In this document: positions 3,460-25,235 of the stretch, in pieces
Layout of the letters: each line of letters starts with the position of its first letter
Numbering within the stretch: position 1 is the stretch's first letter
Virus record (IMG/VR): IMGVR_UViG_3300017777_001407
Span: 1-25,235 of that record
Strand: one strand, 5' to 3'
Source: a virus
Lineage: Duplodnaviria; Caudoviricetes
Length of the DNA: 25,235 bases
The notes under the pieces: model-generated
What the model saw: the letters and a program-made list of their open reading frames with translations, nothing else
Databases searched by the model: none
Told to the model about the DNA's origin: nothing
Translations under genes and position numbers: made by a program

Positions 3460-3465
3460 TATACT
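3457..3465 (+). promoter_or_regulatory. extended -10 sigma70-type promoter
   Basis: TG-A-TATACT. The predicted start near 3471 coincides with the 5' end of the first hairpin. Confidence 0.55.
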
Positions 3466-3470
3466 ATTTA

Positions 3471-3651
3471 GCGAACTGTTCTCCTTGAATTAGTTCGTTT
3501 GTAATGCCGTGAGTATTGCCTAACAGATGTGATCTCATGGCGTCACCGCAAGGTGAGCATCTCCCCAACGCAAGTAGGATGCGGAATCTGTTTTAGCCTA
3601 CAAAAGTTTTGTTCATATCAGTTCCTAGCCCCTCTTCGGAGGGGCTTTTTT
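3471..3651 (+). ncRNA. candidate structured small RNA (about 180 nt)
   Basis: Bounded by promoter and terminator. Stems 3470-3478/3491-3499, 3504-3513/3534-3543, CACC-GCAA-GGTG 3544-3555 and 3557-3562/3577-3582, plus a pseudoknot AACAGAT 3522-3528 / ATCTGTT 3586-3592. Confidence 0.6.
3627..3651 (+). terminator. Rho-independent terminator
   Basis: AGCCCCTC-TTCG-GAGGGGCT followed by a T tract. Confidence 0.92.
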
Positions 3652-3653
3652 AT

Positions 3654-3754: not shown

Positions 3755-3788
3755 GTGTCAATAAGTAGTAAATAAACAAGGAAAACAA

Positions 3789-4091
3789 ATGACGCCTGAA
3801 GCGAAAGTTAAGGCATCGGTAGTCAAGATACTCAAAGACTACGGTGTCTATTATTTCTTCCCTGCCACCCACGGCTATGGTCGTAGCGGTGTGCCCGATA
3901 TTATATGTTGCTACATGGGTGCGTTTATTGCCATCGAGTGCAAGACCATCAAGGGCAAACTAACTGCATTGCAATAGCGAGAGATACTACGGATAAGGCG
4001 AGCAGGCGGTCAGTCTTTTGTAGTCAACGAAGATTTGCTTGACGACTTGAAATTATATTTTGCGTCCTTTGACGAAGATGGGCGGGGCTAA
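3789..4091 (+). CDS. VRR-NUC domain nuclease interrupted by one in-frame TAG (3975-3977); readthrough, nonsense allele or sequence error
   Basis: PE..VK, GYGRSGVPDII, AIECK and TALQ precede the TAG. After it the same frame continues REILRIRRAGGQSFVVNE...DEDGRG to TAA 4089-4091, the expected VRR-NUC C-terminus (100 codons in total). Confidence 0.8.
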
Positions 4092-12253: not shown

Positions 12254-13802
12254 CAAAGCAATAGTAGTTACTACAAGACGCCCCAATCTTGTAACTGAAT
12301 GCATTCCCAAAAGCGAAGTTATTGAGACCAACGGCGACCTACATAAGGTTGCTGTTCGGTGGGGTTTAGACGAAGCACAAGCCCTATCAAAGCTTAAGAT
12401 TAAAAACGTACCATCCCCTATCCAAAGAGATTACAAGTGGCCTGGGCTTTACAAACCCATGGATCACCAAAAAGAAACGGCTAACTTTTTAACCCTTAAC
12501 AAACGTGCATTCTGTTTTAACGAACAGGGTACAGGCAAAACAGCCTCGGCTATATGGGCTGCAGATTACTTGATGGAACAAAAGAAAGTCTACAAAGTAT
12601 TAATTATTTGCCCCCTGTCTATTATGCAATCTGCATGGCAGGCAGATCTGTTTAAGTTTGCTATGCACCGCAAGGTTGGCGTTGCTTATGGCGACAGAGA
12701 TAAAAGAAAAGCAGTAATTGAAAGTGACGCTCAGTTTATAATCATCAACTATGACGGCGTAGACATCGTAGCCGACACCATTGCAAAACAAAACTTTGAC
12801 TTAGTAATTATTGATGAAGCAAATGCTTATAAGACTATTACTACTAAACGCTGGAAGACGCTTAACCATATCATAACCCCACGCACATGGATATGGATGA
12901 TGACTGGTACGCCAGCAGCACAGACTCCTACTGATGCGTTTGGTCTAGCAAAGATGCTTGTACCTGACAATGTGCCTAGGTTCTTTAGTGCCTTCCGTGA
13001 CCAGACCATGGTACAAATTACCAAGTTTAAATGGCTACCAAAACCTGATGCAAGCACAACTGTATTTGATGCACTACAACCCGCAATCCGATTTAAGAAA
13101 GAAGATTGCTTAGACCTACCGGAGGTTACACATGTTTTTCGGGACGCCCCCCTTACTGCGCAACAGACGAAATATTACAAAACGCTCAGAGACGAGTACC
13201 TTATGGCAGCGGATGGCGAAGAAGTTAGCGCCGTTAATGCTGCGGTTAAGATCAATAAACTCCTACAAATTAGTGGAGGGGCTGTCTATTCTGATACCGG
13301 TGCTGTCGTTGAGTTCGATGTTAGTAATCGTCTACGTGTTATTGAAGAAGTAATTGAAGAAGCTAGCCACAAGGTTCTTGTCTTTATTCCGTTCACGCAT
13401 ACAATAGAACTACTCAAGGCACATTTGAGAGGGGCGGGTATTACCTGCGAGGTTATCAATGGACAGGTTCCCGTAAACAAACGAACCGAGATATTTAAAA
13501 GGTTTCAAGAGCAAGTCGATCCTAAAGTACTTCTCATACAACCACAGGCTGCTGCACACGGAGTCACACTAACTGCTGCAGATACTATCATTTGGTATGC
13601 ACCAGTAACATCTATAGAGACTTATTTACAGGCAAATGCACGTATTGATAGGCAGGGGCAAAAGAATAAGATGACTATTGTGCATATTAAGGGTAGTCCC
13701 GTAGAGACTAAGTTGTACCATATGTTGCAGAATAAACTCGATGTACATACAAAAATAATTGATTTGTACCGACAAGAAGTTGACAATAAAGAGTTGACAT
13801 AG
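12237..13802 (+). CDS. SNF2-like superfamily 2 helicase
   Basis: EQGTGKT, IIDEAN, MTGTP, GVTLTAA and QANARIDRQGQ. Confidence 0.92.
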   Translation: MEIVNNKAIVVTTRRPNLVTECIPKSEVIETNGDLHKVAVRWGLDEAQALSKLKIKNVPSPIQRDYKWPGLYKPMDHQKETANFLTLNKRAFCFNEQGTGKTASAIWAADYLMEQKKVYKVLIICPLSIMQSAWQADLFKFAMHRKVGVAYGDRDKRKAVIESDAQFIIINYDGVDIVADTIAKQNFDLVIIDEANAYKTITTKRWKTLNHIITPRTWIWMMTGTPAAQTPTDAFGLAKMLVPDNVPRFFSAFRDQTMVQITKFKWLPKPDASTTVFDALQPAIRFKKEDCLDLPEVTHVFRDAPLTAQQTKYYKTLRDEYLMAADGEEVSAVNAAVKINKLLQISGGAVYSDTGAVVEFDVSNRLRVIEEVIEEASHKVLVFIPFTHTIELLKAHLRGAGITCEVINGQVPVNKRTEIFKRFQEQVDPKVLLIQPQAAAHGVTLTAADTIIWYAPVTSIETYLQANARIDRQGQKNKMTIVHIKGSPVETKLYHMLQNKLDVHTKIIDLYRQEVDNKELT

Positions 13803-13822
13803 TAAAGTAGTAGATGTAGTAT
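13780..13822 (+). promoter_or_regulatory. two tandem sigma70 promoters
   Basis: TTGACA 13780-13785, 17 nt, TAAAGT 13803-13808; and TTGACA 13794-13799, 17 nt, TAGTAT 13817-13822. Confidence 0.7.
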
Positions 13823-13863
13823 TAATTAACGGGCTCAGACCCGATATTAACAAGGAAACTAAA

Positions 13864-14283
13864 ATGAATGATGCCGAAGCGGTAGTACAACCCGTCGCCG
13901 ATATGGACAAACTGGTCAAAGTCTATATTAAAATACGTGACGCCCGTGACCAATTACGTCGTGAACTAGAAGAGAAAGAAGCTGATCTCAATGAACAGCT
14001 ATCTCTGATAGAACAAGAAATACTAGAAGTCTGCAAATCAACCAATGCCGATAGCATTAAGACTAAACATGGTCTTGCTATGCGGTCGGTTAAGAGCAGA
14101 TTTTGGACAAACGATTGGGAGAACTTCTATAAGTTCTTACATGAGCATGAAGCTCCCGATTTGCTTGAGAAAAGAATTCATCAGACCAATATGAAGCAGT
14201 TTTTGGAAGAGAATCCGGACTTGCATCCCGCCGGTTTAAATGTGGATCGCACATACGCTATAACTGTTAGGAGAAGCAAATGA
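13864..14283 (+). CDS. conserved phage replication-module protein (coiled-coil N-terminus)
   Basis: 139 aa with SD AAGGA; SIKTKHG, DWENFY.F, LLEKRI and PAGLN pattern. Confidence 0.8.
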   Translation: MNDAEAVVQPVADMDKLVKVYIKIRDARDQLRRELEEKEADLNEQLSLIEQEILEVCKSTNADSIKTKHGLAMRSVKSRFWTNDWENFYKFLHEHEAPDLLEKRIHQTNMKQFLEENPDLHPAGLNVDRTYAITVRRSK

Positions 14284-14436: not shown

Positions 14437-15319
14437 CTTATTTAATAATCAACTACCCGACTATCTTAAGGAAGTCGAACTTGATGATGTAACCAAAGCC
14501 CTATCAGGTGGCGGTGGCTCACAAATTAAACGCATTGCGCTTGGCAATAATAAGTTTGTGCTTAAAGTGGATGGTACAGAAGTATCTAAGACCAACACCA
14601 GCAAGTTAGAAGTTGTTATTGTTAACGCCTCTAAGCACGTATCAAGAACTTTCTATGCTAAAGCATGGGATCCAAAAGCTGATGCTGCACCACCTGATTG
14701 CTGGTCTAATGACGGTGATAAGCCTGATGCGTCTATTAAGTCACCACAATCAGCAGCATGCGCTAACTGCCCACAAGATATTAATGGGTCAGGTCAGGGC
14801 AATACCAAAGCATGTCGTAAGAACCGCCGTATTGCAGTAGCTTTGGCGTCTGATTTAGATGGCGATGTTTATCAAATGACATTGCAATCCAAGTCTATTT
14901 TCTATGACATGAAAGACCCCGGTGATTTAGAGCACATGCCATTTAACCAATACGCTAAATACGTTGGCTCACAAGGCTACAACTTAAATAGCTTGGTTAC
15001 TGAGATGCGCTTTGATGAAGACTCAACAGTTGGTAAGTTGTTCTTCAAACCGGTGCGATTCTTAGAGCGCCATGAATGGGAGCAAGCCAAGAAACTTGGT
15101 GAAACTCAAGCTGCTAAGAGCGCAGTTACTATGACAATTGCACAAGCAGACGGTATTAAACCTAAGCTAGCTGCGCCAACAGCAAAGGCAGAGGTAGCCA
15201 AAGTTGAAGCGGAATCGATCTTTGAGCCTAAGAAGCGTGAAGAGAAAAAGGCTGAGCCGACTGCTAAACGAGACTTAAAAGCCGTGATGAGCGGATGGTC
15301 CACTGACGAAGAAGCATGA
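14423..15319 (+). CDS. putative ssDNA-binding/annealing protein with Cys4 motif
   Basis: PDCWSNDG..PD...CANCP...GSG...KAC, Ala/Lys-rich linker and acidic tail WSTDEEA; lies between helicase and primase. Confidence 0.6.
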   Translation: MSNVALFNNQLPDYLKEVELDDVTKALSGGGGSQIKRIALGNNKFVLKVDGTEVSKTNTSKLEVVIVNASKHVSRTFYAKAWDPKADAAPPDCWSNDGDKPDASIKSPQSAACANCPQDINGSGQGNTKACRKNRRIAVALASDLDGDVYQMTLQSKSIFYDMKDPGDLEHMPFNQYAKYVGSQGYNLNSLVTEMRFDEDSTVGKLFFKPVRFLERHEWEQAKKLGETQAAKSAVTMTIAQADGIKPKLAAPTAKAEVAKVEAESIFEPKKREEKKAEPTAKRDLKAVMSGWSTDEEA

Positions 15320-15550: not shown

Positions 15551-15619
15551 GGGGACAGCTAGCTCGACGGAGCGAATCGGGATATTGCCGAATCCCTTGC
15601 TGTCCTTATTTTTTCGGTG
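15551..15619 (+). promoter_or_regulatory. structured three-way-junction RNA leader upstream of primase-helicase
   Basis: P1 15551-15559/15599-15607; P2 GCTC-GACG-GAGC 15562-15573; P3 GGGAT/ATCCC 15579-15596; followed by a T-rich tract and the SD. Confidence 0.6.
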
Positions 15620-15629
15620 TTGAGGAACT

Positions 15630-18467
15630 ATGGCAACAACAGATCTATTGACCGCAGTACTGGCACCCGAAGGAGAAGGGTGGTACTGCATAGTTGGCTT
15701 ACGGCAGGACGGGTCAAAACCCCCTGTGCAAACATTCCACGCAACTCTCGTGGAGGTAGAAGCACAAATTGATGTGCTGTTACAAGATAAGTGCAATGTG
15801 TACTTTGCTTGCGCTAAATATAAAGACCCCAAAGAGGGTAGGATCCAACCCAATACGGGTATGATTAAAGCCTTTTGGCTAGATATTGACTGTGGTGAGG
15901 GTAAACCCTATGAAAATCAAACAGAAGGATTAAATGCACTTAAATCTTTTTGTAAGAAGATTAATATGCCTTTGCCATCTGTGGTTGATTCAGGGCGAGG
16001 TATACATGCTTATTGGAGATTAAAAACTGTAATTACTCGGACAGAGTGGCGCCCAGTAGCAGAGCGACTTAAAGCGCTTTGTGAAGAGCATGGCTTTGAT
16101 GCTGATCCATCCAGGACCGCAGATAACGCATCTATTTTACGTGTACCAGAGACTCTTAATTTTAAAGAAGATCCTCCGTTACATGTAACAATTTTGGCTA
16201 TACAGCCCGAAATAGACTACGAATATGTCAAACAAACCATAGGCGTTTTAGTTGCGCCTGACTGGATGCCTCGGCAGTACAGCGAGTCTGCGTTATCTTT
16301 ATTAGGTAATAAGCAAAGCCGATTTAAAACCATCATGATTAAAACCATGAATGGGCAGGGATGTGCTCAGCTTGAGAACATTGCAATAAACCAAGACACA
16401 ATTGAAGAACCACTATGGAGAGCAGGCTTGTCGGTAGCGGCAGTCTGCGTAGATAGAGATAAAGCCATACATAAAATATCCGAAGCACACCCTGAGTACT
16501 CACCGGAGAACACGGAGCGTAAAGCTAATCAAACAAAGGGGCCATACACATGTCAAACATTCGAGAAGCTTAATCCTCAAGGCTGTGAAGGCTGCCAACA
16601 CAAGGGCAAGATATCATCGCCGGTGCAGCTCGGATCTGAAATTGCTGCTGCGGAAGATAACATCATCGTGGAGACGACGGAGACTGGTCAAGAGGAAGTT
16701 TTCGATATACCACCGTATCCATTTCCGTATTTTAGGGGGAAGAACGGCGGCGTTTATATTGAGATTAGGGATGACGATGGGGGTAGTGACGCAATAAATA
16801 TATACGAGCATGACCTGTATATTGTCAAACGCCTGCACGATCCTGCCAAAGGCGAGTCGGTTTGGATCAGACTGCACCTACCAAAAGACGGCATGAAAGA
16901 GTTTGCCATGTCAGCTACAGATGCAATGACATCAGAAAAGCTACGGGATAAGCTAGGCTACTTTGGGGTCATAGCAGCTAAAAAACAAATGGATGCGATT
17001 ATGGGATACATGATTGCGTCAGCAAAAAATCTACAACATTCAATGGAGTTAGAAGTTATGAGAGATCAGTTTGGTTGGGCCGACAAGGATCAAAAGTTTA
17101 TTATCGGTGAGCAAGAAGTTTCAGCAGAAAAGGTAGCATATAGCCCACCTTCAGTAGCCACTGGCTCATTAGCCGACTATTTAAAGCCAAAAGGTAGCTT
17201 TGAAGAATGGCAGCGTATAGTCAAGGTATACGATCAGCCTGGGTTTGAACCACATGCCTTTGGCTTCTTTACCGCCTTTGGTGCCCCACTACTTAAGCAT
17301 CTCAAACTCAAGGGTGCAATTATTAATCTAGTAAACAATATATCGGGTACTGGTAAGTCAACCATTTTGAAGATGTGCAATAGCGTATGGGGTCATCCTG
17401 AAGAGCTTATGTTGCAGTGGAAAGACACAATGAACTCCATGATCCACCGCCTTGGGGTTATGAATAATCTACCCGTGACTATTGACGAAGTTACCAAGAT
17501 GAGCGGCGACCACTTCTCAGACCTACTTTATGCTGCATCGCAAGGTAGAGGTAAGAACCGTATGAAACAGCACGAGAATGCTGAGCGTGCAAACGCTACT
17601 AAGTGGGGCACCATCTTACTAACTAGCTCCAATGCATCCTTCTATGACAAGCTATCATCCCTTAAAGCTACCCCCGATGGCGAGTTTATGCGCCTTTTAG
17701 AGTACAAGATTGAGCTTACAGGCACACTGTCTAAGCAAGAAGCCGAAGAGATATTCAATGCTTTGTACGAGCATCATGGACACGCAGGAGTTAAGTACGC
17801 CCAGTATTTAGTTACTGATTTAGAAGAAGCCATGGATCTTGTTATGCAAGTCCAACAGCGTATTGATAAAGCCGTTGATATGAGTAACCGTGAGCGGTTC
17901 TGGTCGGCTGTAGCCGCATGTAATATCGCCGGCGCTTTAATTGCTAAGGATTTAGGATTAATTGATTTTGATATACATAGGGTATATACCTGGATTGTTG
18001 CAGAACTCAAAGTCATGCGGCATGAAATTAAAGCCCCAACCAAGGGTGTGACTGACGCTATCAGTGAGTTTATTAACGAACACCGTGGCACTGTATTGGT
18101 AATTAATGACGAAGCCGACGGTCGTACTGGCATGGAACAACTGCCTATTGTTGAACCTAGATGGGATAAGCTGTACATCCGCATAGAGCCTGATACTAAA
18201 GAAATGTACATTAACGCCAAGCAGTTTAGGAAGTATTGCACCGAGAACCAGATTACTTTAAAAGATGTGCTGACTTCCTTGGAGGTAGATAAAGCCTACC
18301 TTGGGCTTAAGAAGAAGCGCATATCCAAGGGCACCAAGATTAAATCAGGAGCTATTGACTGCTTTGCTTTTGACCTGTCAGCTAAGGCGTTTGAAGACGA
18401 GCAACTTATTGAAATAGCACAGGATACGCCACAAGATGCTGATCCACGGTCTGAGCTTCAGAGTTAA
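15630..18467 (+). CDS. primase-helicase (RepB/AEP-like primase, Cys-rich middle region, DUF927-type helicase)
   Basis: WLDID, SGRGIHAYW, ILRVPET.N, PYTC..F....C..C, Walker A SGTGKST and Walker B VTIDE; SD GAGGA. Confidence 0.88.
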   Translation: MATTDLLTAVLAPEGEGWYCIVGLRQDGSKPPVQTFHATLVEVEAQIDVLLQDKCNVYFACAKYKDPKEGRIQPNTGMIKAFWLDIDCGEGKPYENQTEGLNALKSFCKKINMPLPSVVDSGRGIHAYWRLKTVITRTEWRPVAERLKALCEEHGFDADPSRTADNASILRVPETLNFKEDPPLHVTILAIQPEIDYEYVKQTIGVLVAPDWMPRQYSESALSLLGNKQSRFKTIMIKTMNGQGCAQLENIAINQDTIEEPLWRAGLSVAAVCVDRDKAIHKISEAHPEYSPENTERKANQTKGPYTCQTFEKLNPQGCEGCQHKGKISSPVQLGSEIAAAEDNIIVETTETGQEEVFDIPPYPFPYFRGKNGGVYIEIRDDDGGSDAINIYEHDLYIVKRLHDPAKGESVWIRLHLPKDGMKEFAMSATDAMTSEKLRDKLGYFGVIAAKKQMDAIMGYMIASAKNLQHSMELEVMRDQFGWADKDQKFIIGEQEVSAEKVAYSPPSVATGSLADYLKPKGSFEEWQRIVKVYDQPGFEPHAFGFFTAFGAPLLKHLKLKGAIINLVNNISGTGKSTILKMCNSVWGHPEELMLQWKDTMNSMIHRLGVMNNLPVTIDEVTKMSGDHFSDLLYAASQGRGKNRMKQHENAERANATKWGTILLTSSNASFYDKLSSLKATPDGEFMRLLEYKIELTGTLSKQEAEEIFNALYEHHGHAGVKYAQYLVTDLEEAMDLVMQVQQRIDKAVDMSNRERFWSAVAACNIAGALIAKDLGLIDFDIHRVYTWIVAELKVMRHEIKAPTKGVTDAISEFINEHRGTVLVINDEADGRTGMEQLPIVEPRWDKLYIRIEPDTKEMYINAKQFRKYCTENQITLKDVLTSLEVDKAYLGLKKKRISKGTKIKSGAIDCFAFDLSAKAFEDEQLIEIAQDTPQDADPRSELQS

Positions 18468-18633
18468 CTGGAAGAACTTTGTGGTTGGGTCATCCTTTTT
18501 TATACCTTGTTTGGATACAGAAGGGGCCCTAGCCCAAGTTAAACGCACCACAAAGCGTCTTGGGTACAAGATTAAGACTCAAATTGTTGTAGAAAAGGGA
18601 ATACGTGGGTTGCGAGTATGGCGGATTAGGTAG
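18436..18633 (+). CDS. small basic hypothetical phage protein
   Basis: W..F.VGSSFFIPC...GLRVWR; overlaps the primase end. Confidence 0.7.
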   Translation: MLIHGLSFRVNWKNFVVGSSFFIPCLDTEGALAQVKRTTKRLGYKIKTQIVVEKGIRGLRVWRIR

Positions 18634-18639
18634 TATTAT
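18610..18639 (+). promoter_or_regulatory. putative sigma70 promoter for a small RNA
   Basis: TTGCGA 18610-18615, 18 nt, TATTAT 18634-18639; predicted start near 18646. Confidence 0.45.
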
Positions 18640-18645
18640 CTGGGT

Positions 18646-18715
18646 GTAGCCCATGGCTACTTCATTTATTTCCTTGTTGGTAACAACTTTAGCCCCGCTT
18701 CGGCGGGGTCTTTTT
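18646..18715 (+). ncRNA. candidate small RNA (about 70 nt) with exposed anti-SD/anti-AUG segment
   Basis: Hairpin GTAGCC-CAT-GGCTAC, unpaired TTCATTTATTTCCTT, hairpin GTTG-GTAA-CAAC, then the terminator. Confidence 0.5.
18692..18715 (+). terminator. Rho-independent terminator between converging genes
   Basis: GCCCCGC-TTCG-GCGGGGT followed by CTTTTT. Confidence 0.88.
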
Positions 18716-21700
18716 AGTCCTCTGGATCCCCGTAGTCGTTCATGGCTGATAGCTGCCCAATAAGCTTCTTATTAAGGGACATACCACCAGTAATCTCAGC
18801 CAAACCACGTTGCTTATATCGTGTAGTTACCGAGCGACTTAAGTTTGTGCCTAATATAGAAACACCAGGATTAGCAGCATTAAACTTAATTATGGTTTCA
18901 AGCGTCTCTTCAATTAGGTCGGAATCGTTATTATCAACCCCCATAAAGAACGCATCTAACAAAGACTGCCTACGGTTAAGGATGTTTTGTTCCGCCGTCT
19001 TCATCTCAATATTAGACTTCTGGCGTTGAGCAAGGCGCTCTGGAGAGAACCCAATAAACTGCAATCCTGCTTCGTAGCCCGAAACATCCCCTAGGAGCTC
19101 ATTTCCCTTAAGGGTTGTGGCTCGCCCCTCAGAAGCTAAACGAATGCCTTTTAGAGCGTTTTTAATAACGGCTGGGGTGCCTGTTTCAAAAGCTCTTTCG
19201 ATATAGCCATCGTTATATTGTTTAACTGCCTCGGCACCGTTAATAACCAAGCCTGCTGAAGGGCCTAGTAGGTTAATAAACATGTTTTGCACGGCTGTAA
19301 CTTCATCAGAACTCTTACGGGTATCTCTGTACCACATGTCATTTAAGCTTAAACGGCTGGCTATATCTGCACCAAGCGCCTGTGATACCACCCCACGGGA
19401 AATAGAGTCGCCTACAAAGCCGCCAAAGGTCTCGTTGCACCAGTTTTTAAACCAGTTATCAAAGTCCCATTCTTCTTCGTCGTCGCCAAATACAGCTTGC
19501 ATAGCGTTAATAACACCAGACACAGCCCACCATAAGGGTAAACCCGAAGCTCCAGCAAATACTGCAGTTAATCCCAAGGTGCCAAGTAGTCTGTTACGAG
19601 CTTCTACTTGTATATCCTTCATGTATTGATCGACTGCTGCGTCTAATTCATTTGCAGTTAAAGGCTCGGCATCAGGAGTATTTATCTTACGACTTCCTTT
19701 TATTTGGTCGGCTATGTCTTTGTACATGCCAAGCCTAGGATCGTTTGGATCTATCTTTGCTATTTCTTTGCGCTGATCAGCTGTAAGAATGCTTCTTTGC
19801 CATTCGTACAAACTTCTAGCCAATAGGTAGGTCATTTGCTGGGCAAATTGCTTAAACTGAAGAATAACTTTAGCGTAGGCACTTTGAAAATAACGTGGTT
19901 TATTCAATGTTGAGTAATCAAACATTGATTTGTAGGTTAGTTCTTTGGTAACTTCAATTGCTTTATCAAACGCAGCTTGATCTGTATAGCCGTCGGCTTT
20001 AGCTTTATCGTAAGCTAAGTCAAATACGCTCATACCCACAACTTCACGGTTAAATTTCTCAGCGCCGTGAAACAAACCACTTAGCACTTTCATAACACTT
20101 TGGGTTTTACCAGTGTACAAATTAGAAGGGGCTTCAGCCATGCCAACTATGTCGTGTGATAACGTAATGTCAAACAAACCATCAACTACAAGTTTGTCGT
20201 AAGCACGCTGCTGCAATTCGGTTAATATGCCGGCTTTATTGTTTAATGAAGGAAAAGTTGCATTACCATCTTTATCTTTAAATCCAGCGCCAGCAAACTT
20301 CTTGGCAAGCGCACTCATTTTTGCGGCAGTTTTTGCATTACCAAATCTAGCACCTACTACAGGCAAGCCGACCGCTACAACACCTAGCATGTTTACCAAT
20401 GCTGAAGCAGGTGAAGTCATGAACCAAATAAAGGAAGTATTAGATAGAAACCCTGGTATTCCGCCAGTGTCCGTAGGATTCATTATGTATTCCATACGTT
20501 TTTCTAGCTCGGCTACATACTCAGCATCAATCTTGCCTTCTCTAGTATCTTTTTCTTTAAGCCCTTGTCTAGCTGTAGCTAGGTCATCAAACATCCCACG
20601 ACTATGTTTATATCGAGAATGCTGATAAGACATATGGAACGCCGACGACGTAAACGCACGCAGCATGTCTAGTTCCATACCAGCAACACCTTTACGGTTC
20701 ATAAACATCTTGCGGACGCTTTGATCTGGCAGGGTTAAGAAATAAAGCTGCTCTAAGTTTTCTTCAATATTAGCCTTAAGCGCTTCATTAGTCTCGCCTT
20801 TGCCTGACTTAATAATATTTTTGAGTTCTTCTAAGAACGTAAAGTCACGCATATTATCTGAGGCAAGTTCTTGTATAGAGTTACGAGCTTTGACTTCGCT
20901 ACCAGTAAGTTTGCGATTAAGGTCTTTTTCTAGTTCAGCTTTACGCTCGGCTAAAAACGCATTGCGTTGTGCAGCGCTCTCAAACAAATAAAACTCTTTT
21001 TTCTTGCCATCAAAGAACTGAACCGAGAACCTACCAAAACGACGTATTGGGAAATACACGTCTACCTTATGCTTAGAAAAATGCTCTCTTAATCGCTTAA
21101 CTTCAGGGTTATTCTCTAACTCTGCGGTTTCTAGGGCGTACTTAGGATCTTTAATATCTGCAGTGGTACGGTACTGCGCCTTCTTATTTTCAACGGCGTT
21201 GTTAATATAGTCGGCCAAGCTCTGCTTATAAAAGTCTCGCACTTCTCTATATATAGCCTGCCCTTCTGCGCCAATTTCTTGCCAGGCTTTGTCAACTTCA
21301 GGGCGCTGAGTCTTACCTTTGTCCGGATCTTTATTTAACGTAAACAAATTACCCTGTTTATCTGTATAAGGTGGGCGATCATCAAGCGTAACGTCAATCA
21401 TTAACTTGTTAAGTATTATTGCTAGCTTAGGATTGTCTTTCTGCCACTTTTGCCAGCGTAGTGCAATCTTCCTAGTCTTTTCAAGCCGTTGATTACGGTC
21501 GTCAAGCATACCCTCTACTTTTGCAATAAAGGTTCTAAACTGCGGGATTCTGCTACCAGCCAAATCATTTAACTGACGCAGGGTAAATCCGCCTAAATAG
21601 TACTTACGGGCCGTATCGTCAACGTTCTCAAGAAAATCCCCCATGCCTAGCTTTAGCATGTTCCAAGTTGGACGACCAAAAAATCTTCTATCTATGGTGT

Positions 21701-24700
21701 TCAAGAAGTTGGGATTAGCAGGCATATTGCCTTTTAATATTGATTTACCTCTAGCGGGGAAGGCACGCATATTAGCAGTAGTAGCTGGGGGAGCTTGCAA
21801 TATGATGTTAGCGTTGGCAATTGTGTAGCCAAGCACGTTGTCTAAACCAAAGAGTTTTGCAATAAATTTAGTAAATGCGTCCCATAAGCTTACTTTGCCA
21901 CCTTCATATCTAAGGTCTCGTAACAGATTTTGGAACTCTTCATTAGCAAAAGCTTCAGATACAAACTCGTCTACGCTTTTAAAACCGTACTCTTCAAACT
22001 CAGGCTTGCCTTCGTATTTCTTTTTAGCGTACTCAAATAGTTTATTTAGCTCAGTTACAGCGTCTTGTTGTTGCTTAGTTAAATTATTAAAGTTCTCTGG
22101 ATCTAAGGCATACATTGTTCCTGCATGAGTTACTTCATGTAGCAACGCCCAAGTGCTCATCCCACCTTTGCTTGAATTTAAATTAATAGTGTCTAAATAG
22201 CCACCGTAATACACACCAGCAGAGTCTATATGGCTTACTGCGTCTCGATACGCTTGAAGCACGGTATTAAATTGCCCAATAATAGGGGGTATTACATCTT
22301 TCATGTACTCTAGTCGGCCAGAGGCAATCGCTTCTAAACCTTCTAAATTGCCACGGAATACATCTTCTGTATCTAATGGCTGGTCAAACTTATAGTGTTT
22401 AATAAAGTCTGGACCCCAATCATACGTTCTGAGAGTATTTAAAAAAGTGGGTTTAGCTCGTTTGGCATTGTACTCAACTAATTCTTTAGCCAGGCGAACT
22501 TGTTGATTAATTACTACGTCAGTTTGTAAATTTAAACTTTTTAGTCTTCTTGCAAGATTAGTTATGAATTTATTGTAAGAACCAACTACTGATTCTCTAG
22601 TTAATAACTCAAGCGCTCCGTTAAGGTCCCCAGCTTCTATGCGAGCCTGAATTGCAGGATGCATTGGGTAAAACAACTTAGGATCAAGCGTTTCAGTCTT
22701 GCTAGGTGGTTTATACCGTTTAAGTCCTGCATCAAATACAAAACCTTCAGCTTTACCAGTAGGAGCACGGCTAATATTTTGGATGTATTTACGTGCTACA
22801 CCACCTTCTTTTTTAAGTTTGTCGGCCCGCTCTATGGCAGCGTCAGCATCCCTAACCATCTTTTGATACGCAGCTACTGTAGCGTCAAAGCGTTTTAGTT
22901 CTTTTGCAGGTAAGTTATCTTCGACCCATTTCTTAAATAATGTAGCCTGCGCTTTGTTTTGATCTTTAAATACTACGCCAGAATAAGTGTTGTCTTTTAT
23001 ACCAAGGTCAAACGCAGCCGAGCGCATAGCCAAACTATAAGTTGGGTAGCCGTTTCTGCCCCCAAAGTAAGCGTATGCAGCATTTTCTTCTGGCGTTCTT
23101 TGACTTGCTGGGATTCCGTCTAATATAGTTAAAGCCCTTTGAATCTGTTGGGCAGTGTATGGCTCCATGTTATTAAGAGCTTCTGTAGCCTCAAACGGCA
23201 ATACAGTCCCCTCTATACCAAGACTTGCACGCTCGTATTTGTTTAAAGCCTCTTTTAGCTGGGTACTAAAATCGTTAATGCCCCGTACAGTATTTAAATT
23301 AGGCGCAGAAGTTAACGACGCTAATGCTTCAGACTGGGATTTAACGTCCATACCAGCAAAACGCTGGGATAACCCAGAGGTCAAAGCCTCACGCTCTTTT
23401 GGTGCAATACTTAAGCTATCAAAGAACTGACGCAAAAAGTTTAGCCGCTTGTCTAGTTCTGGTCCAGCAAGTGGTGCGCTAACATCAGGACCTTTACCTT
23501 CTGCTTCAAATCTGGCTACTTCTTTACCAGTCTTAAACCCAAGAAACTCAGCAACATCATCAAGCATGTTGTTTACTTTGCTTCTAAAAGAAACAGATTG
23601 TGTTGGGTTAGCACTGCTAGACTTTAGGCTATTAAAGAAGGCGGTCAACGGTTTTAATGGGTTGTCGGCCGAGCCAATCAGCATCATCTGAGCACGTTCG
23701 CCTTCAGGTATAGCTTCAATACCTTTGGTTTCTGGTACATACCCAGCTGGTGCAGTTAGTTCAAATCCATCCCCAGTTGTGTCTAATGTACGTTTGGTAT
23801 CGTCACTAGGCTCTTCAAACTCAAACCCCATTTGTCCAGGAGCTCTTGCTGCTTTGATTTTGCCCTGTCCAGCAAGTTCAGCTTTTGCCTGCCGTACACT
23901 TTGCAGTTCACTATCTACTTGACCAAACTGTTGTTCTGCCCCGCCAATACGCTCATCGGTTGGGTCAACCTCACTGATCTCTCTTATGTAGCCTTTAATG
24001 TTATTGAGTTGGCTAACTAAAGCAGCTTCTCTTGTGTCTAGCTCATTTAGTTGATTGTTGAGTTCCTCATCTCGTTTTGCAGCATCTGCAGCAAGTCGAT
24101 TAGCTCTATCCAAGTCTGTTTCGGAAGGTTCTCCAGCTCCGGCGTCAGTTGCACCTTTTCTGAGTTTCTCTTCGTCAGATAAAGAAACGCCAGGCTCACC
24201 TGCTCCGGCGTCAGATTTAGTACCGTAGTCTCTTGCTTCATCTATAGCACTCCTGCCGGGCTCCCCAGCTTTTTGTAATTGACGTTCACGTCGGCCTTCT
24301 AAGTATGCACCAGCACCAGAACCTGCCAAACCAAACGAACCGCCACCTACTGCACCACGTACAGAAGACTCAATGATGCGATTAAATTCTTTGCTTCCCC
24401 AGATTTCTGGGTTTTCTTGGACAAACTTCTCGGCTGTAATACTGATTGCTTCTTGTGCACCCTCAGTCAAACCTTCTGTTGCAGCACTACCAATTGTAGT
24501 ACCAACGACTCGTCTAGCCACTTCTGAGGGCATACCTGATTTCTCAAGTATTTTTTCTACAACTCCAGCTTTTGCATTTGGACCAAGTTGTTTAAGAATA
24601 GCGACTGGCAATACTGAATCTAGTGCGGCTGATACAGAACCAGCTAAAAGAGCTGCACCGGTCTCCATTTGACCAGTCTCTTCATATATGTTTTGGAATA

Positions 24701-25235
24701 CTTCAGGAGCGTTAAGCGCATAAGAACCAAGAAAGGTTCCAGCAAGTTGCCCACGACCAGCACCTTCCGCCGTCTTCATTGCTGCGTATCTAGCTCCAGC
24801 TTCTGTAGCTTCACGCTCGGCTAACTTTTTAGCGGCTGCGCTAGCAGCCATACGCCCACCGACTGCGCCAATTCCCGCACCGGGTATCAAAGCCGTAGCC
24901 ATACCAGGTATTTGTTCTGCGACTGTTTCTAGTGCAAAGGGTATATAGTCGCCTATGCCTTTGACGTCGGATAAAGACTTATAGCGGGCACCGTACTTTT
25001 GCTCAATTTCTTTTTGAGTCTGCGCAGCTTCTTCCATCTGCTTAGCTGCATACTCGTCAGCGCCAACAGCTTTAGCCGCCATAGCAGGTAATACATCAGC
25101 AAGCAAAGACCCAGTTTGTTTAGCGCCACGTACAATACCACGCCCCATCATGCTTAGTACACCAGTATCCTGTGTAGGTTCTGGTTCAGGCAAACCAAGC
25201 TCAGCAGCCGTGTACTCTTTTTTGCTGGATGTTAA
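18714..25235 (-). CDS. very large virion/ejection-type polyvalent protein (PLxRFG-like motif, zincin HExxH), 5'-truncated
   Basis: Frame stays open from 25193 to the window edge. Gly/Ala-rich N-terminal part, LLHEVTH...DEFVSEAF, YFPIRRFG and hydrophobic C-terminal helices. Confidence 0.8.
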   Translation of the reverse strand, partial: LTSSKKEYTAAELGLPEPEPTQDTGVLSMMGRGIVRGAKQTGSLLADVLPAMAAKAVGADEYAAKQMEEAAQTQKEIEQKYGARYKSLSDVKGIGDYIPFALETVAEQIPGMATALIPGAGIGAVGGRMAASAAAKKLAEREATEAGARYAAMKTAEGAGRGQLAGTFLGSYALNAPEVFQNIYEETGQMETGAALLAGSVSAALDSVLPVAILKQLGPNAKAGVVEKILEKSGMPSEVARRVVGTTIGSAATEGLTEGAQEAISITAEKFVQENPEIWGSKEFNRIIESSVRGAVGGGSFGLAGSGAGAYLEGRRERQLQKAGEPGRSAIDEARDYGTKSDAGAGEPGVSLSDEEKLRKGATDAGAGEPSETDLDRANRLAADAAKRDEELNNQLNELDTREAALVSQLNNIKGYIREISEVDPTDERIGGAEQQFGQVDSELQSVRQAKAELAGQGKIKAARAPGQMGFEFEEPSDDTKRTLDTTGDGFELTAPAGYVPETKGIEAIPEGERAQMMLIGSADNPLKPLTAFFNSLKSSSANPTQSVSFRSKVNNMLDDVAEFLGFKTGKEVARFEAEGKGPDVSAPLAGPELDKRLNFLRQFFDSLSIAPKEREALTSGLSQRFAGMDVKSQSEALASLTSAPNLNTVRGINDFSTQLKEALNKYERASLGIEGTVLPFEATEALNNMEPYTAQQIQRALTILDGIPASQRTPEENAAYAYFGGRNGYPTYSLAMRSAAFDLGIKDNTYSGVVFKDQNKAQATLFKKWVEDNLPAKELKRFDATVAAYQKMVRDADAAIERADKLKKEGGVARKYIQNISRAPTGKAEGFVFDAGLKRYKPPSKTETLDPKLFYPMHPAIQARIEAGDLNGALELLTRESVVGSYNKFITNLARRLKSLNLQTDVVINQQVRLAKELVEYNAKRAKPTFLNTLRTYDWGPDFIKHYKFDQPLDTEDVFRGNLEGLEAIASGRLEYMKDVIPPIIGQFNTVLQAYRDAVSHIDSAGVYYGGYLDTINLNSSKGGMSTWALLHEVTHAGTMYALDPENFNNLTKQQQDAVTELNKLFEYAKKKYEGKPEFEEYGFKSVDEFVSEAFANEEFQNLLRDLRYEGGKVSLWDAFTKFIAKLFGLDNVLGYTIANANIILQAPPATTANMRAFPARGKSILKGNMPANPNFLNTIDRRFFGRPTWNMLKLGMGDFLENVDDTARKYYLGGFTLRQLNDLAGSRIPQFRTFIAKVEGMLDDRNQRLEKTRKIALRWQKWQKDNPKLAIILNKLMIDVTLDDRPPYTDKQGNLFTLNKDPDKGKTQRPEVDKAWQEIGAEGQAIYREVRDFYKQSLADYINNAVENKKAQYRTTADIKDPKYALETAELENNPEVKRLREHFSKHKVDVYFPIRRFGRFSVQFFDGKKKEFYLFESAAQRNAFLAERKAELEKDLNRKLTGSEVKARNSIQELASDNMRDFTFLEELKNIIKSGKGETNEALKANIEENLEQLYFLTLPDQSVRKMFMNRKGVAGMELDMLRAFTSSAFHMSYQHSRYKHSRGMFDDLATARQGLKEKDTREGKIDAEYVAELEKRMEYIMNPTDTGGIPGFLSNTSFIWFMTSPASALVNMLGVVAVGLPVVGARFGNAKTAAKMSALAKKFAGAGFKDKDGNATFPSLNNKAGILTELQQRAYDKLVVDGLFDITLSHDIVGMAEAPSNLYTGKTQSVMKVLSGLFHGAEKFNREVVGMSVFDLAYDKAKADGYTDQAAFDKAIEVTKELTYKSMFDYSTLNKPRYFQSAYAKVILQFKQFAQQMTYLLARSLYEWQRSILTADQRKEIAKIDPNDPRLGMYKDIADQIKGSRKINTPDAEPLTANELDAAVDQYMKDIQVEARNRLLGTLGLTAVFAGASGLPLWWAVSGVINAMQAVFGDDEEEWDFDNWFKNWCNETFGGFVGDSISRGVVSQALGADIASRLSLNDMWYRDTRKSSDEVTAVQNMFINLLGPSAGLVINGAEAVKQYNDGYIERAFETGTPAVIKNALKGIRLASEGRATTLKGNELLGDVSGYEAGLQFIGFSPERLAQRQKSNIEMKTAEQNILNRRQSLLDAFFMGVDNNDSDLIEETLETIIKFNAANPGVSILGTNLSRSVTTRYKQRGLAEITGGMSLNKKLIGQLSAMNDYGDPED

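Follow-up and report, generated by a model that had tools for sequence, protein, structure and literature searches.

The phage RNAs sar, OOP and aQ are encoded opposite their targets. In the accessible part of a review of phage small RNAs, these three are described as antisense RNAs and are listed with 24B_1, PreS and VpdS as phage RNAs that exert post-transcriptional control over phage or host genes, with 24B_1 being a product of 20 nt for which an action on d_ant has been proposed and PreS targeting the host dnaN (PMC12197685). Two described RNAs come closest to the one analyzed here: c4 of P1 and P7, which the accessible text of its source presents as a ~77-nt phage RNA that occludes ribosome-binding sites (RBSs) on mRNA of the phage that encodes it (PMC5320573), and StxS of the Shiga-toxin lambdoid phages, presented in the corresponding part of its source as a 74-nt, Hfq-bound sRNA that pairs at an RBS and thereby represses one of the genes of the phage encoding it (PMC7547250). 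In the portion of the review available to us, temperate phages are the main source of the known sRNAs whose effect on genes of the same phage has been tested, these sRNAs mostly have a single target transcript, and no phage sRNA is described that matches a group of its phage's own early RBSs (PMC12197685). Among openly accessible papers (subscription papers were not covered), we found no description of the RNA reported below, which may nonetheless be listed in the structured-RNA catalogue of Fremin 2023 (PMC10690425), of which the part that we searched gave no hit.

We analyzed a 25,235-nt stretch of DNA (the window) that is part of a tailed-phage genome. Its plus-strand arm encodes DNA polymerase A, an exonuclease, an SNF2 helicase, a 298-aa protein, an HTH protein and a DUF927 primase, and at 18714 this replication arm meets a large virion protein gene on the minus strand. 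A predicted small-RNA unit sits in the 80-nt gap between a 65-aa ORF and that virion gene and comprises, with its flanking genes, the following features:

18436–18633, plus strand: 65-aa ORF, last gene of the replication operon, whose final codons contain the −35 box
18610–18639, plus strand: predicted sigma70-type promoter (−35 at 18610–18615, 18-nt spacer, −10 at 18634–18639)
18646–18715, plus strand: predicted ~70-nt small RNA, its 5′ start inferred from the −10 box
18646–18660, plus strand: 5′ hairpin of 6 bp, covarying
18661–18675, plus strand: unpaired segment, located in the sequence
18661–18683, plus strand: open anti-Shine–Dalgarno (anti-SD) seed, with a Watson–Crick core at 18669–18678
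18676–18687, plus strand: GUAA-capped (GNRA) hairpin of 4 bp, clade-specific, its 5′ arm overlapping the seed
18692–18715, plus strand: intrinsic terminator (UUCG stem 18692–18709, U-run 18711–18715)
18714–25235, minus strand: large virion or ejected protein gene, converging on the RNA terminator

The initial annotation had correctly placed the −35/−10 pair, the hairpins, the unpaired stretch, the UUCG terminator and four gene starts resembling the complement of that stretch, and had correctly read the minus strand as ATG-AAG-TAG. The U-run of the terminator and the stop codon of the convergent virion gene overlap. By itself, the promoter match does not exceed chance (16 found versus 19.5 ± 5.1 in shuffles). 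The fold of the RNA has a z score of −4.43 with the terminator and −2.37 without it, so that the terminator contributes most. The seed is more often unpaired than the remaining RNA body (0.70 versus 0.50, 51/64), a contrast that is partly built in because the rest of the body includes the 5′ hairpin. An Rfam search, one of the checks proposed at the outset, returned no family at 18610–18715 up to an E value of 1, and the Rfam C4 model had no match at gathering score in six related stretches.

We gathered relatives with the 65-aa ORF, whose protein is conserved among them; it matched no PHROG or Pfam family, and a search of 50,697 phage records did not return it. From a pool of more than 500 relatives we took three sets of 80 loci, the first two strongly overlapping. 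The unit (promoter, 5′ hairpin, open anti-SD stretch and terminator) recurs in 149 of 160 related loci, counted by a called terminator, the remainder being seven loci that were too short and four with no call, one of which (L297) was a false negative. Beyond the stop codon of the 65-aa ORF, a −10-like hexamer at a spacing of 17 or 18 is present in 98 of 103 distinct promoter regions, versus a background of 7.6%, and the Arg codon within the −35 box is CGN in 102 of the 103, whereas the next Arg codon is CGN in only 65. The U-run occurs on the plus side only, with a mean of 6.75/8 T after the terminator hairpin versus 1.8/8 A before it (n = 112). The 5′ helix is present in 107 of 112 distinct RNAs and covaries (95% of cells paired and 11 two-sided changes in 30 sequences, 0/500 shuffles), and the anti-SD word, the conservation of which was in question, is present in 105 of 108. 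The GNRA hairpin, although present in the window as originally described, is local to one clade (3/108 distinct RNAs), and the anti-AUG CAU is found in 37/108, so neither is conserved, and the consensus structure consists of two helices, the 5′ hairpin and the terminator. We found no conserved minus-strand ORF under the RNA among the 108 distinct RNAs. The idea that the segment is the vestigial RBS of a minus-strand gene was rejected, with an SD plus ATG in only 38/108 and the ORFs being 1–61 aa long with no shared sequence. From this conservation of layout we conclude that a plus-strand RNA unit of ~60–100 nt is under selection, and we infer from it that the unit is transcribed.

About a hundred distinct relatives thus keep the predicted RNA, with a seed that differs between phages. 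Three loci (L296, L301 and L306) have no promoter, RNA or terminator yet retain the target gene described below, making them natural RNA-less variants; we ruled out that an SD hidden in cis replaces the RNA in these loci, where accessibility ranks 4, 10 and 43 of 89. Among isolates, the nearest are Rhizobium phage RHph_TM27A and the Pseudomonas phages Rollin and KPP25; inspected by eye, they showed no such unit at the convergence point, and matches to the homologous gene starts reached just 6–7 nt. An Rz-like spanin in one relative points to a Gram-negative host. The sole good GTDB match, one MAG contig labelled Nanopelagicales, is probably a binned phage, because of that same spanin, and we set this host assignment aside. 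A tyrosine integrase was not found in any of 19 family records, 11 of which are 90% complete or more, nor a serine recombinase or ParA-like ATPase in the five complete family records; there is therefore no sign of a lasting resident state.

The seed is complementary to several distant gene starts on the replication arm, of which two stand out:

13794–13843, plus strand: predicted promoter of the main target operon (13794–13822) and 5′ leader hairpin (13830–13843)
13844–13868, plus strand: main predicted target RBS, of a Gp157/Gam-like gene, with a 10-nt core at 13849–13858
13864–14283, plus strand: 139-aa DUF7307 (Pam3 gp33-like) protein, its fold predicted to be Gp157/Gam-like, encoded at the head of its operon
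3775–3791, plus strand: second predicted target RBS, of a VRR-NUC-like gene (3789), with a 10-nt match

The predicted duplex between the seed and 13844–13868 has 14 + 7 bp and −20.8 kcal/mol, and this site ranks second of the 291 AGG/GGAG sites in the window. The top-scoring pairing site in the window lies within the primase coding sequence (17086; 17074–17109, plus strand; −18.9 kcal/mol) and is not a start. Of the regions upstream of the main target gene, 87/100 show the promoter pattern, versus a background of 4.4%. The 5′ leader hairpin, positioned where the target mRNA is predicted to begin, covaries in many relatives and leaves the RBS open, possibly as a protein-binding or stabilising element.

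The DUF7307 assignment of the 13864 protein is a weak one, under the Pfam cut-off (E = 1.8e-5). Its AlphaFold model (pLDDT 82.7) resembled predicted structures in BFVD, namely Siphovirus Gp157 (E = 2.6e-5) and a host-nuclease inhibitor (E = 4e-3), and a Foldseek search of the PDB found no match. By its modelled fold we therefore predict that the protein is Gp157/Gam-like. The KPP25 homologue of the protein (L400:18888–19292; hhalign probability 92%) is annotated as a 'minor head protein', a poor fit with both its replication-gene position and the Gp157-like fold. Proteins of the Gam type protect the ends of DNA from nucleases of the host. Gp157 is tied only loosely to phage resistance in the accessible part of its source (PMC6356513).

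If the RNA acts at this RBS, the two should change together. We compared 46 related records, taking as our measure the longest Watson–Crick run between an RNA and its own or foreign gene starts; the first set comprised 35 distinct seeds and 23 gene families, with start codons picked by a script that used an anti-SD motif and got some of them wrong. For the 13864 family, own pairs averaged 9.64 nt versus 7.05 nt for foreign pairs (0/5000 by chance), own runs of at least 10 nt occurred in 16/33 versus 6.3% off the diagonal, and the 13864-family start was top or tied among gene starts in 26/33 records. In a held-out set of 79 loci whose RNAs were absent from the first set (68 distinct pairs, some of them close kin of the first), own pairs again exceeded foreign pairs (7.96 versus 5.97 nt, 0/3000), with runs of at least 10 nt in 21/68; the effect persisted after clustering at 75% (n = 25, 0/3000) and 65% (n = 7, 8/3000), and none of five control genes had a match of at least 10 nt. 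As a control for phylogeny, we built a FastTree primase tree of 107 rows and drew from it 28 edge-disjoint pairs with different RBSs, in which the own match beat the swapped match in 17–18 and lost in 2–4 (p ~0.001), whereas for the control genes p ranged from 0.095 to 0.74. Together, these comparisons show that the predicted seed tracks the 13864-family RBS of its own phage.

The longest run is shorter than 9 nt in 54 of 107 RNA–target pairs, the match to the main target spans just 5–7 nt in some clades, and some predicted duplexes consist of two helices around an internal loop, with variable spacing between the helices. The unpaired segment was originally described as the complement of an SD plus start codon; the pairing that is conserved centres on the SD and spacer, from about −12 to −5, and only 3 of 53 strong pairs have a match that extends to the AUG. 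We dropped the notion that CAU-to-CGU changes preserve wobble pairs to the AUG, because it is the spacer of the target RBS that the CGU matches.

Both the main target gene and the VRR-NUC-like gene at 3789, which opens the polymerase operon, come first after a predicted sigma70 promoter. The VRR-NUC family also covaries with the RNA (own 7.33 versus foreign 5.70 nt, 1/5000, n = 12), as do the 2572 (19/5000) and 1686 (60/5000) families; no covariation was found for the 298-aa gene, polymerase, exonuclease, primase, helicase or the 11800 family. The VRR-NUC-like ORF (3789–3977, plus strand) has 62 aa here and ~95–130 aa in most relatives, possibly through an early stop or a frameshift. Of the four start regions singled out initially, those at 13852 and 3778 (rank 17) thus belong to covarying families, whereas the family of 11789 (rank 27) does not covary (1256/5000) and 11060 ranks only 94.

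For a comparison of early and late genes we used 17 records of 45–74 kb, which are related genomes, with the dropping of one relative as the only correction for kinship. Matches of at least 10 nt to the phage's own RNA were found at 31 of 606 early-strand starts versus 2 of 746 late-strand starts, and the two on the late strand were spurious ORFs that coincide with the gene for the RNA. When the main target was left out (16 records), 20 other early starts matched at this length versus 1.7 expected from foreign RNAs (0/5000), or 17 versus 1.3 when one close relative was dropped, and late starts with such a match numbered 0 versus 1.9 expected. The difference persisted when only strong-SD starts were considered at a threshold of at least 9 nt (40/425 early versus 3/455 late). 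The extra predicted targets depend on the lineage and include the VRR-NUC, AAA ATPase, 1686, 2572, vWA and 4158 families.

Two other candidate RNA elements lie in the window. A second predicted small RNA (3461–3652, plus strand) has the same layout, with a −10 box immediately downstream of the 2572 stop codon and then a terminator, and its fold has a z score of −4.5. It is ~130–190 nt long in relatives, among which we found 26 distinct versions, and 20 of the 26 have a covarying, pseudoknot-like pairing of 6–7 bp between a loop and downstream sequence; no Rfam family matched it at gathering level. With kinship ignored, its anti-SD seeds track the own 1686-family RBS (7.55 versus 6.29 nt, 0/3000, n = 22) and also the AAA ATPase RBS (11/3000). 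The other element is an Rfam int-alpA motif at 15552–15619 (plus strand), in the interval between the HTH gene and the primase, which scored 37.1 bits against a gathering threshold of 35.8, is followed by a U-run and also occurs in the related locus L104. In a phage in which no integrase was found, this motif is possibly an attenuator of primase expression.

Because the seed mirrors the RBSs of its own phage's early genes and changes with them, the RNA likely turns down their translation. Two hallmarks of trans-encoded sRNAs are found here, a promoter and intrinsic terminator of the RNA's own, evident from their conservation (98/103 promoters, 149/160 terminators), and a short accessible seed complementary to distant RBSs, evident from the computed complementarity. 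We therefore favour, as the probable role of this locus, a trans-acting sRNA with its own promoter and terminator that would repress translation of early genes and spare the virion genes. The initial annotation had put forward silencing of either the phage's own replication genes or a host mRNA; the covariation with own RBSs well supports the predicted targeting of the early, replication arm, and additional host targets are possible. In the mechanism we envisage, host RNA polymerase would begin to make the RNA as soon as infection starts, together with the early operons, and the RNA would build up. Its seed would pair with early mRNAs over about −12 to −5 and block ribosome loading, possibly assisted by host Hfq at the U-rich 3′ end. 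The first genes of strong early operons would be damped, chiefly that of the replication operon, and the outcome would be a negative feedback that sets in with a delay and does not affect virion genes.

A broader version of this model is tentative, and we put it at rather less than even chances: that in this large phage family, in which no integrase was found, the early-to-late switch is made at the level of translation, with each early operon block ending in a promoter-driven small RNA (the 18646 RNA and the second, pseudoknotted RNA at ~3470–3652) whose seed reads a lineage-private RBS signature of the early genes that is absent from virion genes, the same signature setting which relatives are shut out on superinfection.

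Superinfection exclusion could also be the main role of the RNA, with the RNA of a first phage silencing the early RBSs of a later close relative and the rapid co-divergence of seed and RBS marking immunity groups. This reading, which is compatible with early-gene repression, draws on the many distinct seed/RBS pairs across the family and on the report, in the accessible text on c4, that cross-action between P1 and P7 is limited by a change of 4 nt in c4 and the target of c4 (PMC5320573). The searches that returned no tyrosine integrase (19 records) and no serine recombinase or ParA-like ATPase (five complete records) weigh against it, and we consider it unlikely.

We give much less credence to a fold-back in cis, in which the seed would be the 3′ end of a long replication mRNA that folds onto the RBS of its first gene, with the separate promoter being secondary. 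The operon ending at the RNA terminator does begin with the main target gene, but the −10 box is conserved outside the ORF (98/103), the matched RBSs lie in other operons too (VRR-NUC, AAA and the 1686 family), and the int-alpA motif with its U-run intervenes between the target RBS and the seed. Equally improbable, in our estimation, is that seed and RBSs share a word bound by a protein, for example the HTH protein at 15316 or another phage regulator, with the word serving as an operator in DNA or as a decoy in minus-strand RNA, without any RNA–RNA pairing. The wobble counts leave room for this explanation, since they did not tell RNA pairing apart from a shared motif (21 G-U versus 26 A-C, with a background G-U share of 0.40, p = 0.32), as does the enrichment of early matches among promoter-proximal genes (16/36 versus 29/570 at a threshold of at least 9 nt), and late transcripts may read through the one-way terminator. 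The words are, however, non-palindromic and always SD-centred, they lie on the complementary strand in the unpaired part of a promoter–terminator unit, and the spacing of the helices varies. The reading that the RNA silences host mRNAs or soaks up Hfq, its phage RBS match merely mirroring the SD style of the host, is barely credible: anti-SD words are generic, and phage sRNAs that act on host mRNAs or Hfq (PreS, VpdS) appear in the accessible part of the review (PMC12197685), but late genes in the same host lack the match even at strong-SD starts and control genes of the same operon do not covary.

If the predicted trans-acting RNA represses as proposed, it would provide a simple RNA timer for the shut-down of early genes in lytic growth. 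Across a widespread family, a single small RNA and the RBSs of a set of early genes have been re-matched to each other many times, with late genes remaining without a match. The dozens of natural seed/RBS pairs that the family offers also lend themselves to cross-testing in a plain reporter assay that does not require the host.

The predicted targets of the 18646 RNA lie 4.8 and 14.9 kb away and not opposite it, which sets it apart from RNAs of the sar and OOP type. Its likeness to c4 is that, according to the accessible part of the source, the specificity of c4 resides in flanking sequence that co-diverges with the target (PMC5320573). The two differ in structure, with c4 having three stem-loops (P1–P3) with a′ and b′ loops and the 18646 RNA two helices that do not match the C4 model; in origin, with c4 processed by RNase P from a precursor and the conserved promoter of the 18646 RNA arguing for a primary transcript; and in setting, with c4 serving lysogeny immunity and the phages here having no integrase that we found and several matched early operons. 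StxS, as presented in the available portion of its source, is an RNase E-processed by-product of late-promoter termination in lysogens that targets a cargo gene and the host rpoS (PMC7547250), whereas the 18646 RNA matches core early genes and covaries with them family-wide. Judged by comparative analysis, this phage sRNA candidate is real and conserved, the comparative evidence for its targets is unusually strong, and its predicted mode of action is that of c4 and StxS.
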